Below, one piece after another: positions 25,501 to 28,500 of a stretch of 43,429 nucleotides of DNA. Position 1 is the first letter of the stretch. Every line of letters starts with the position of its first letter. The DNA is taken from IMG/VR virus record IMGVR_UViG_2522572023_000001; one strand, 5' to 3'. Made by a program: the position numbers. Source of the stretch: a virus (taxonomy: Duplodnaviria > Heunggongvirae > Uroviricota > Caudoviricetes).

Positions 25501-28500
25501 ATTACCCGGATAAGATTACTGTTACTGTGGCACTGGAAATTGGTGGGTATCCGTCACTGTTGTTGCCAGATGTGGCGATTAGTCTTGACCGTACTGAAGG
25601 TGCCACGCTGGAGTTTTACGAAGCTGAGGCGAAAAAGCAGGCGAAGCAGTTTTTCATGGATGTTGCTGCCGGGTTATGTGAAGGGGATGGTCCGTTGCCG
25701 GAAAAGCGCCCCGTAATTTTAGAGGCGCAGGATGTGTTGATAACCTACAGAGGAAAACTACCGGGAATAATTACTGGTTCTCTGAAGACTCCACCGCTGG
25801 CCTGAAGACTTAACATATCCAGGGATTTGAAATCGATAAACCCTGATAAATATCCATGAACGCAAAAATCAGATACGGCCTGTCGGCTGCCGTTCTGGCG
25901 CTGATTGGTGCAGGGGCGTCTGCGCCTGAAATCCTCGACCAGTTTCTGGATGAAAAGGAAGGTAACCACACCACGGCATACCGTGATGGTGCGGGGATCT
26001 GGACCATCTGCCGTGGTGCCACCCGGGTGGATGGTAAGCCTGTTATTCCTGGCATGAAGCTGTCAAAGGAAAAATGCGACCGGGTTAATGCCATCGAACG
26101 TGACAAGGCGCTGGCATGGGTGGAGAAAAACATCCGGGTGCCGCTGACCGAACCCCAGAAAGCGGGGATCGCGTCATTCTGTCCGTACAACATTGGCCCC
26201 GGTAAGTGTTTCCCGTCGACGTTTTATAAACGAATTAATGCAGGAGATCGAAAAGGTGCCTGCGAAGCGATTCGCTGGTGGATTAAGGACGGTGGCAGAG
26301 ACTGCCGTATTCGCTCAAATAATTGCTACGGTCAGGTCTCACGGCGTGACCAGGAGAGCGCGCTGGCGTGCTGGGACATCGACAGATAGCAGAATATTTT
26401 CCTGAAAAATGACGTTGGCCAACGCGGGTGGATAACACGAAATCCTGAAAACTGGTAAAACCTAAGTGAATAAAAGTAAAAACCCCGTTTGTTGGCAGCA
26501 AGCGGGGTTTTGTGTTTTCTGACCTTGAGTAAGGCAAGGGAGAAATTATGGGTAGGGAGGTACTTTCCCTGTGAGGAAGTATAAAAGATTCTTTCTGAGG
26601 TTGTCCATTATGAAAGGCATTGAAGTGGAGACGCCAGCCAGTCTGGATTTAACAAGAGCGGCAGCTTTTGCCATTCGTATTGTGGCCATTGCTGTTCTGG
26701 TCTGGGCAATCCGTTGGTGGTGATATGAACCGTGTTCTGTGCGTGGTTATCATTGTCCTGCTGGTGGCCTGTGGTGCGCTTAGTCTGGGGCTGAATCATT
26801 ACCGTGATCACGCCATCATCTACAAAGAGCAGCGCGATAAAAAAGCCAGTGAGCTGGAGCTGGCGAACGCGACAATTACTGATATGCAGATACGCCAGCG
26901 TGATGTCGCTGCACTTGATGCCAGATACTCGAGGGAATTAGCCGATGCGAGAGCTGAAAATGAAACTCTGCGTGCTGATGTTGCCGCTGGTCGTAAGCGC
27001 CTGCGCATCAACGCCAACTGTCCAGGCTCCTTGCGTAAAGCCCCCATCACCTCCGGCGTGGATAATGCAACCGGTCCCCGACTGGCAGAAGCCGCTGAAC
27101 GGGATTATTTCATCCTCAGAGAACGGCTGATGGCAATGCAGAAGCAACTGGAAGGAGCACAGGAATATATCCGTACCCAGTGTATACCGTGATGTTTTGT
27201 TATGAAGGTGTTACTGGTAACGTTAAGGTAATTTAACAAAGAGTCAGTTCCGGACTTTATAGTGTGCTCAGTTCATGGACAAAAACGATTTCTGTGATAA
27301 ATATTTTGAATATTATTTACAGGTAAATGGAGTGGGGCGCATGGATAGAAATATTACAATAGAGTATGAAGTATATGCCCGTATTGTATGGGCAGAGAAG
27401 GCAAAAACACGGTAATTCCGTGTGTTGCCATGATACCTGATTGGCAGAATAGTTGTTTGGTTTTGAGTATATAGTCAGCGTTTTTTGTTCAGTAATTGCC
27501 CCCTCAAAAAATAATAAAATAAGGTGATTATTTTTGTTTATTATTTAGTTTTTTTTGTGTGTTATTTTATTGTTTTTGCGTGGTTTGTTTTTTATTGTTA
27601 TTTCATTAAGGGAAGGTAAATTCAGGATGGCAGTCTGTAGATAATCGGAGGTCACTTATGCTACATGATCACGTGGCAGAATGTCTGGAGAAAAAAGGAC
27701 TGTACCGGAGAGCAGCTGAACGATGGGCAAAAGTGATGGTACAGCTAAGTGATGACCAGAAAAGAAAAGTGGCGGCACAGAAACGAGCAGAGTGTTTGCG
27801 TAAGGCGCGCCGGACTCCGGTTTCACCGGTGAACCTGACCGAAATAAAACAAGCGGTCAACAGACTACATTCTGAGTTGGGAATGGGATTTGAAGAGCGG
27901 CGGGTATTCCGACGATATAAAGGGACAGGAGAACAGAATACGTCCGGAAACGCGCGGTCAAAAAAATGCTAAAAAATATCTGAGAGAGTTATTGCCTGTT
28001 ACCATAAGAAAAAGCGACTTTAGTGGTCGCTTTTTGTGTCATATATAAGTCGTTTAAGTAAACCTGTCTGAACAGGTGCTCTGGTCGTGTTTGTCTTTGT
28101 TGGGTACAAATTGAGAATATTTTTCATTAATTAATCTTCTTCTGCAGGCTTCAATAACCCACGCTGAAAAATTACCTGAACCTTTCAGGTCAAGAGCGAT
28201 GTTAATTTGTTCAATTATCTGGTTTGGAAATCGGATGTTGCGGGTTGTTGTTCTGCGGGTTCTGTTCTTTGATGACATAATGTTGCCCCGTATTCAGTGT
28301 CGCTGATTTGTATTGTCTGAAGTTGTTTTTACGTTAAGTTGACGCAGATCAATTAATACGATACCTGCGTCATAATTGATTATTTGACGTGGTTTGATGG
28401 CGTAGATGCACGTTGTGACATGTAGATGATAATTATTATCATTTTGCGGGTCCTTTCCGGCGATCCGACAGGTTACGGGGCGGCGACCTCGCGGGTTTTC

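Follow-up and report, generated by a model that had tools for sequence, protein, structure and literature searches.

What can a small basic gene, placed between the lysis genes and the cohesive end of a decaying prophage, mean for the virulence of the host bacterium? The question is raised by a 43,429-nt stretch of DNA from a tailed virus (Caudoviricetes; IMG/VR record IMGVR_UViG_2522572023_000001), hereafter called the window, which contains an open reading frame (ORF) of 104 amino acids (aa) downstream of the lysis genes. An earlier reading, made by a model from the sequence alone (the sequence-only reading), had likened the product to the Pch regulators, which activate the enterocyte effacement locus (LEE) through ler, and had suggested that a defective prophage thereby feeds into the control of type III secretion. 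The results presented here indicate that the ORF is almost certainly an intact group-1 pch gene of the pchA type, which a defective lambdoid prophage of enterohaemorrhagic Escherichia coli (EHEC) O145:H28 carries as a moron at the end of its late operon, and no evidence contradicting the identification as PchA was found. Identity, family, genomic context, near-identity of the upstream region, decay of the prophage and copy number were established in this analysis, and the activity of PchA and its regulators are drawn from the literature.

The pch gene extends on the + strand from an ATG at 27658 to the stop at 27972 (27658..27972). The Shine-Dalgarno (SD) sequence GGAGG, read directly from the DNA, lies 6 nt 5' of the ATG (27647..27651, + strand), and the predicted product is basic (pI 10.3; 25 K+R residues vs 12 D+E). 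The description of a 104-aa basic ORF with a good ribosome-binding site was thus accurate. First of all, the protein matches the Pfam PerC family (PF06069) with 149.3 bits, where 22.6 is the cut-off; the match (E=3.8e-44) covers positions 1-89 of the 90 in the model and is far beyond chance. In addition, it is identical at 104/104 positions to ECs_1091, the "transcriptional regulator PchA" of E. coli O157:H7 Sakai, and the exact sequence is named "PchABC family transcriptional regulator" in UniRef, where it occurs on at least 1000 contigs. An alignment to the PerC family, named beforehand as the comparison that could refute the Pch interpretation, showed clear family similarity, with 100% identity to PchA and 47% identity over residues 2-88 (E=1e-27) to PerC of enteropathogenic E. 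coli (EPEC), the third gene of perABC on plasmid pMAR7. The Pch interpretation is therefore supported. The locus is a textbook group-1 pch gene in a known genome and, as such, the finding is already known.

When 1.84 billion representatives were searched exhaustively with HMMER, 82 related clusters of small proteins were obtained. Three very long proteins and a few short fragments excepted, the PerC family representatives among them are 56-142 aa long. The alignment of 48 PerC sequences has the signature A-E-x-L-E-x-x-G-L-Y-R-R-A-A-x-R-W followed by a cysteine about 23 residues past the tryptophan. The three invariant residues (R17, A19 and W23) and the eight that are at least 90% conserved (A7, L10, E11, G14, R18, A20, R22 and C46) are all found in the window protein, which, with its 104 aa and its lambdoid prophage, is also typical of a family of small proteins (about 60-140 aa) carried on horizontally acquired elements. 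No solved structure of any relative was found by sequence search. In an AlphaFold2 model of PchA, built on the 48-sequence alignment, the mean predicted local distance difference test (pLDDT) score is 83.5 and residues 1-75 are confident; helices are predicted at residues 5-13, 16-29, 33-50 and 60-73, with a short helix at 80-86 and a basic tail of low confidence.

EPEC PerC (pEAF/pMAR7) belongs to the same Pfam family as Pch, and both activate LEE1. PerC, however, has 89 aa and is encoded on a plasmid, where its gene is third in an operon that also codes for the AraC-type PerA, whereas pch is monocistronic, prophage-borne and multi-copy, and the basic tail of its product is 15 aa longer. PchA, PchB and PchC are described as interchangeable with PerC, and gene dosage matters (PMC5293775, in a passage citing Porter 2005). 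LEE expression in EHEC requires Pch, but EPEC can dispense with perC (PMC4764244).

Which of the group-1 genes is present was determined by aligning approximately 900 bp each of the window and the three Sakai loci, pchA (prophage Sp4), pchB (Sp11) and pchC (Sp14). The four coding sequences differ solely at nt 16, 172 and 183, which are the positions given as diagnostic for the pchA/B/C alleles (PMC5931665), and in the window all three are of the pchA type (G16, G172, C183). It differs from the Sakai copies at 0-3 of 315 coding positions (pchA 0/315, pchB 1/315). At the protein level, PchB (ECs_2182) differs from the window protein by V6L, and PchC (ECs_2737) by V6L and V58M. The 465-bp upstream region is likewise of the pchA type, with 6/465 differences from Sakai pchA. 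Divergence between the paralogues is concentrated in a T-rich, low-complexity core of this region (27480..27620, + strand; 23% GC, 52% T), where pchA, pchC and pchB differ from the window at 2, 14 and 42 of 141 positions, respectively, and the rest of the cassette is near-invariant (in the 5' part of the gap pchB differs at 5/287). LrhA has been reported to control pchA and pchB differentially (Honda 2009, as cited in PMC4456613). The T-rich core may underlie paralogue-specific regulation of this kind, and its variation is a plausible substrate for the differential action of LrhA.

The window and Sakai Sp4, Sp11 and Sp14 share the layout of Rz/Rz1, an AT-rich gap of approximately 465 bp, pch and then the terminase. 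The Sakai pchA locus is alike also in the length of its product, the SD sequence, the terminator and the slot after Rz/Rz1 and before cos/terminase. In Sp4, however, the segment with pchA and the lysis genes is inverted beside IS629, whereas the window arrangement is collinear and free of insertion sequences (IS) at the pch spot. The carriers are also different: the window host is O145:H28, and its prophage has a lambda-type early region and resides at ybhC-ybhB, the lambda att site.

Over its entire length the window matches E. coli O145:H28 strains RM13516 and RM12761 with 100% identity, and according to the RefSeq annotation it forms a lambdoid prophage next to ybhC, in the lambda att region between ybhC and ybhB/bio. 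The early region is lambda-like and comprises int, xis, exo, bet, gam, kil, cIII, N, a LexA-family repressor gene, cII, O, P, ren, nin genes and Q; its type is confirmed by the lambda cIII thermoregulator RNA element that Rfam detects in the early-left operon (6972-7030, - strand, 88.5 bits). As had been claimed, the prophage is defective. Gene O is split into fragments (10999-11229 and 12527-12595) by an IS3-family element (11280-12493, + strand) whose transposase is made by programmed frameshifting (ALIL frameshift pseudoknot at 11561-11677). Furthermore, gam is frameshifted, and in the morphogenesis region the sequence jumps from FI to a fragment of a tail-tip protein gene, so that most tail genes are missing.

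Genes for type III secretion system (T3SS) effectors occupy the right end of the prophage on the + strand, namely nleH (39098-39979), cif (40203-41030) and a frameshifted DUF1076 (nleG-like) pseudogene (41969-42543), and espJ lies just outside the window. The LEE activator and substrates of LEE secretion are therefore carried together on the same prophage. Strain RM13516 has a 47.9-kb LEE at selC (PMC3893438), and the target of the regulator is thus present in the same genome. The proposed link of a defective prophage to the control of type III secretion consequently holds, given the protein, the state of the prophage and the host.

Among 5,426 complete E. coli genomes, 673 contain the 908-bp pch cassette (median three copies per genome), and the best copy is at least 99% identical in 660 of the 688 matching records. 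The RM13516 chromosome has four copies. The cassette was not found in any complete phage genome of the phage collection searched. A 100% identical copy of the cassette occurs in O157 strain 7409, in a prophage whose head and packaging genes are of a different kind, with an HNH endonuclease and an HK97-type terminase and capsid. The block shared by the two prophages (window 26788-28278 vs 19594-21086 of the 7409 prophage record) extends from inside Rz to the end of a ynfO-like gene and is 98.8% identical, and 100% identical over 27193-28100. Since the same block occurs next to a different head module, the cassette has been exchanged between prophage backbones as a module. The locus itself matters only as a correct annotation: an O145:H28 strain associated with an outbreak has four copies of a master activator that acts upstream of the LEE, and this is one of them. 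It is known that Pch dosage determines how much type III secretion takes place, and both the copy number and the paralogue type are therefore relevant to the prediction of virulence at the strain level.

What the gene would do follows from work on the identical protein. With cloned PchA, a ler::lacZ fusion in the chromosome gave 9,087 instead of 1,577 Miller units, PchA, PchB and PchC each activate ler at least 4-fold, and PchD and PchE barely act (PMC5931665). Pch activates LEE1 only under silencing by H-NS, StpA, Hha and YdgT; less H-NS occupies LEE1 and the effector loci when Pch acts, and the nucleoprotein complex is remodelled by it (PMC4764244). Chromatin immunoprecipitation (ChIP) located PchA at LEE1 with or without H-NS/StpA, and H-NS was not co-precipitated with PchA (PMC4764244). 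The window gene encodes a 12-kDa basic PerC-family protein that, according to these reports, would bind around the LEE1 promoter and relieve silencing by H-NS/StpA/Hha, and ler would then be switched on and, via Ler, the whole LEE-encoded T3SS together with non-LEE effectors. Presumably the window copy is expressed and adds to the Pch dosage along with the three other copies of the strain.

Several inputs to pch have been described. LrhA acts upstream of pch, as does LeuO (PMC4456613), Lrp with butyrate is a transcriptional input to pchA (PMC7279287), and sigma-S/NtrC have been reported as further inputs. SOS or prophage induction raises the expression of group-1 pch genes (PMC5931665), which fits the position of the gene at the distal end of the Q-dependent late operon. 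Transcription of the window copy would thus be under LrhA and Lrp/butyrate, and read-through from the late promoter after SOS induction may contribute to it. At the level of RNA, an anti-SD sequence inside the pchA coding sequence has been reported to sequester the SD, and the small RNA (sRNA) DicF to open this structure under low oxygen (Melson & Kendall 2019, as recounted in PMC7769764 and PMC7873438); translation of the window copy would be controlled in the same way. A helix search, together with pairing tests for which the DicF sequence was taken from an O157 prophage, pointed to a tentative candidate anti-SD at 27746-27753 (+ strand; 8 bp with 27651-27658), next to a perfect 8-nt complement of DicF nt 1-8 at 27755-27762. 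An alternative pair is formed by 27643-27650 with 27815-27822, beside a 7-nt DicF match at 27823-27829. The site 27746-27762 is invariant in 5/5 aligned pch copies. The window sequence is compatible with the published mechanism, with both sets of sites as tentative candidates. An Rfam scan detected neither a known RNA family in the region of pch nor dicF anywhere in the window. The pch-carrying prophage of O157 strain 7409 encodes, in the coordinates of its own record, the sRNAs DicF (4540-4591, - strand), AgvB (anti-GcvB; 16326-16387, - strand) and STnc100 (16123-16323, + strand). As the window prophage is without all three, DicF could control this pchA copy only in trans, from other prophages.

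The support for the DicF sites is weak, and there are caveats on the contribution of this copy. DicF-complementary seeds of at least 8 nt number nine on the + strand of the window by chance. The predicted fold of 27620-27800 is no more stable than those of shuffled sequences (z=-1.2), and in partition-function calculations the accessibility of the SD was hardly altered when either candidate DicF site was blocked. The duplex energies of DicF with the mRNA are non-specific, as the best value in the pch region (-47.8 kcal/mol) is equalled or beaten at several unrelated places in the window. In O157 strain PA20 after SOS induction, pchA was the least expressed of the three genes, with 7.7 reads per kilobase per million (RPKM) vs 90.7 for pchC (PMC5931665), and the pchA-type copy may therefore contribute little under some conditions. 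Finally, the disruption of gene O means that the prophage cannot replicate, and amplification of gene dosage on induction is therefore unlikely.

With 33.3% GC, the 465-bp intergenic region in front of pch (27193..27657, + strand), comprising promoter or regulatory DNA and the 5' untranslated region, is poorer in GC than the window (47.1%), and an equal AT-richness is reached by only 4.2% of segments of this length. The sequence-only reading had seen here about 450 bp of AT-rich, low-complexity leader resembling an H-NS target. The length and AT-richness of the region stand, whereas only about 140 bp, the T-rich core, are truly of low complexity. The term leader is also a loose one, as it conflates promoter DNA with the RNA-level control element reported inside the coding sequence. 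The gap contains 13 A/T tracts of at least 4 nt, in keeping with the AT-rich, T-tract character of H-NS-silenced regions, and on base composition H-NS binding is plausible. A scan for sigma-70 promoters gave six matches in the gap vs 4.0±2.0 expected from shuffled sequences, among them weak ones at 27276-27305 and 27425-27453 that do not exceed this expectation; as the scan is at chance level, no transcription start was assigned. A 46-aa ORF within the gap (27275..27415, + strand) matches phrog_2157, a family of unknown function, with E=1.2e-36. It has no evident SD and no RefSeq annotation, and the paralogues differ in it by nine non-synonymous vs one synonymous changes; it is probably over-called and not a real gene.

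An alternative to a conventional, activator-dependent pchA promoter is that the gap serves mainly as an H-NS silencing platform on which LrhA, Lrp and LeuO act as counter-silencers. LrhA, Lrp and LeuO are classic H-NS antagonists, which counts for such a platform, as do the base composition and the 13 A/T tracts within 465 bp. It is also favoured by the butyrate sensor PpchA-pchA-PLEE1, which worked only after deletion of hns, although its authors attribute this effect to PLEE1 (PMC7279287). On the other hand, four other 140-bp stretches of the window match or exceed the T-rich core in AT content. The high-affinity nucleation motif of H-NS, which is said to resemble TCGATAAATT and to have been described by Lang et al. 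in 2007, is not enriched, with a single two-mismatch match in the gap (27230-27239) and 49 matches in the window vs 51.7 expected. Furthermore, no report of H-NS at pch upstream regions, by ChIP or by footprinting, was found in the available literature. All in all, a silencing platform is a real possibility to which we give slightly less than an even chance.

A second question concerns the manner in which the Pch protein itself acts, and it arises from a resemblance to the ANR (AraC negative regulator) family. ANR proteins, such as Aar of enteroaggregative E. coli (EAEC) and Rnr, have 39-80 aa, act negatively and bind AraC-type activators and H-NS; Pch, in contrast, is a positive regulator of 104 aa that has an additional helix and a basic tail and reportedly binds DNA. 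Virulence regulation that depends on H-NS is modulated by both families, which appear to share a three-helix unit of approximately 50 residues. ANR proteins are described as having three helices with one highly conserved cysteine (PMC4038620). In the AlphaFold2 model, three helices are predicted with confidence in the first 50 residues of PchA (pLDDT >94), and the cysteine of ANR is aligned with C46, but the protein extends to 104 aa with additional elements. In the literature searched, the resemblance of PerC and ANR is mentioned only in passing, for a LEE-repressing PerC-like protein encoded on a phage-inducible chromosomal island (PICI) (PMC11773190).

The window protein scores 13.6 bits against the NCBIfam ANR model NF033650 (residues 7-47, E=0.046), below the cut-off of 32, and is therefore not filed as ANR. 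At the level of the family, 45 of the 48 PerC representatives match the ANR model at E<=0.1 (best 5e-7), and all 48 are clear PerC proteins by Pfam. In a decoy control, 16/48 real PerC sequences reached at least 10 bits against the ANR hidden Markov model (top 26.6), compared with 0/48 reversed and 0/240 shuffled ones (maximum 8.0). A 10-sequence ANR alignment, which included annotated ANR genes from Citrobacter, Yersinia and Pasteurella plasmids, was matched to the PerC profile by hhalign with 68% probability (E=4.8e-5, 53 columns), and the match spans PchA residues 2-54 and nearly the whole ANR domain. The spacing of Y-x2-A-x3-W, followed by E-W-x3-R-x3-C, is common to both families, with 23 residues between tryptophan and cysteine. 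An annotated phage ANR protein superposes on the first approximately 46 residues of PchA at 0.8 A, with a Foldseek E-value that is not significant. Aar-only and Aar-clade profiles gave no signal against the PerC profile, and word-indexed homologue searches with PchA and with Aar returned close relatives only. Taken together, the N-terminal three-helix unit of PerC/Pch (PchA residues 1-50, window 27658-27810) appears to be homologous to ANR, a moderately supported lead rather than a case of membership.

A broader proposal goes further: the unit would be a diverged ANR domain, the virulence activators PerC/Pch and the anti-virulence ANR regulators would form two branches of a single superfamily of small mobile-element modulators of H-NS silencing, and Pch would act partly through ANR-like protein contacts, tethered to DNA by its C-terminal helix and basic tail. 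We regard this as possible yet doubtful. The ANR link is kept as a lead only, because the cut-off was failed and because the reported lack of a PchA-H-NS interaction argues against a simple shared mechanism. What remains to be discovered here is limited to the PerC-ANR relationship, a matter of the protein family and not of the locus. If true, the link would help to explain how H-NS silencing can be relieved by proteins that lack a recognisable DNA-binding fold, and why the LEE is repressed rather than activated by some PerC-like proteins. More radically, Pch might not be a classical DNA-binding activator at all, and instead be a small ANR-like adaptor that acts through contacts with nucleoid-associated or AraC-type proteins. 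PchA is found at LEE1 by ChIP independently of H-NS/StpA and H-NS does not co-precipitate with it (PMC4764244), the Aar-clade profile is silent, the ANR score and the Foldseek E-values fall short as given above, and the approximately 50 extra C-terminal residues of Pch, including the basic tail, could bind DNA. In spite of the resemblance, a pure adaptor is thus unlikely.

A direct challenge to a contribution of this copy is that the gene is intact and nevertheless silent, for example under permanent H-NS silencing in a decaying prophage, with no input into the T3SS of the strain. The upstream region (33% GC, with 23% in its T-rich core) is typical of H-NS-bound DNA, the prophage is degraded and pchA was poorly expressed in the PA20 RNA sequencing data (PMC5931665). 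However, the upstream region differs at only 6/465 positions from that of Sakai pchA, which is itself expressed and required for full LEE expression (PMC4764244, PMC4456613). In addition, the cassette has been kept at an identity of at least 99% in 660 of 688 records, and variation among the copies falls in the core of the gap and spares the coding sequence, a pattern that suggests functional selection. A permanently silent copy is accordingly improbable, and an intact pchA that adds to Pch dosage remains the preferred interpretation. Finally, the PerC family is heterogeneous and includes small proteins on mobile elements, such as PchD, PchE, K-12 YfdN and the PICI PerC-like proteins (the latter only ~40% identical to one another, one of them silencing LEE1; PMC11773190), with little or no effect on ler (PMC5931665) or with repression, but that the window gene is such a paralogue with no LEE activation can practically be dismissed, since its product is 100% identical to PchA and one and two residues away from PchB and PchC, all three of which activate ler, and at most about 44-56% identical to non-group-1 representatives, so that sequence identity effectively refutes it.

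Turning to the neighbourhood of pch, a complete lambdoid lysis cassette, from holin to Rz/Rz1, precedes the gene, in agreement with its earlier placement. The cassette starts with a class II holin gene (25241..25456, + strand; RefSeq annotation of the identical RM13516 sequence), followed by a gene for a YdfR-like protein (25461..25805) and the endolysin gene, annotated as a phage lysozyme (25856..26389, + strand; Pfam Phage_lysozyme, E=1.4e-24). The interval between endolysin and Rz holds, on the + strand, a strong terminator-like hairpin (26479..26511; -21.8 kcal/mol, with a T-run after its 15-bp stem) and an ORF of 37 aa (26610..26723; phrog_4493); in Sakai Sp11 this slot is occupied by other inserts, e.g. 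an antirepressor gene. The last lysis gene is Rz, encoding the i-spanin (26725..27192, + strand; Pfam Phage_lysis, E=2.8e-46). Rz1, for the o-spanin lipoprotein, lies inside it in another frame (26945..27130, + strand) as a 61-aa ORF with a lipobox-like VVSAC, and its Sakai counterpart is annotated as "lipoprotein precursor".

Downstream of pch, a hairpin between an A-run and a T-run (28009..28035) forms a bidirectional intrinsic terminator (-14.7 kcal/mol on the + strand, -11.9 on the - strand) that is invariant in all aligned pch copies. It is followed by a YlcI/YnfO-family (DUF3950) gene convergent with pch (28054..28278, - strand; Pfam DUF3950, E=1.3e-17; NCBIfam YlcI_YnfO_N). The cosN 12-mer GGGCGGCGACCT, a cohesive end of the lambda type, is found as one exact match in the whole window (28478..28489, + strand), and the sequence flanking it presumably corresponds to the ends of lambda. 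The ORF had been placed immediately before cos; cosN does lie downstream, but 506 bp from the pch stop codon, with the terminator and the ynfO-like gene in between. Next come the gene for the terminase small subunit Nu1 (28673..29182, + strand; Pfam Phage_Nu1, E=1e-18) and the large terminase gene. The niche between Rz and cos houses late-operon morons such as bor of lambda, accessory genes with AT-rich regulatory DNA and a terminator of their own. The niche is shared with pch, whereas the proteins of bor and pch and their functions are unrelated, and bor is on the opposite strand in lambda.

Three further ORFs of the prophage, all on the - strand, deserve a mention. The gene for an LpxR-family lipid A deacylase (19645-20604; Pfam E=6.8e-40) lies upstream of Q and adjoins an AT-rich segment (20736-20875, 21% GC); it is another moron, with a possible role in modification of the outer membrane. 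In the nin region, a 590-aa ORF (15301-17073) is flanked by AT-rich DNA (15098-15237, 21% GC; 17041-17180, 23% GC). It had no match in Pfam or PADLOC, and the only PHROG families matched are of unknown function; this moron-like ORF may be an accessory or defence gene that has not yet been described. Between N and cIII, a 293-aa ORF (7647-8528) was without match in the Pfam and PADLOC scans, and its last 20 residues weakly resemble the C-terminus of a Nun-like transcription termination factor (phrog_5632, E=7e-5).

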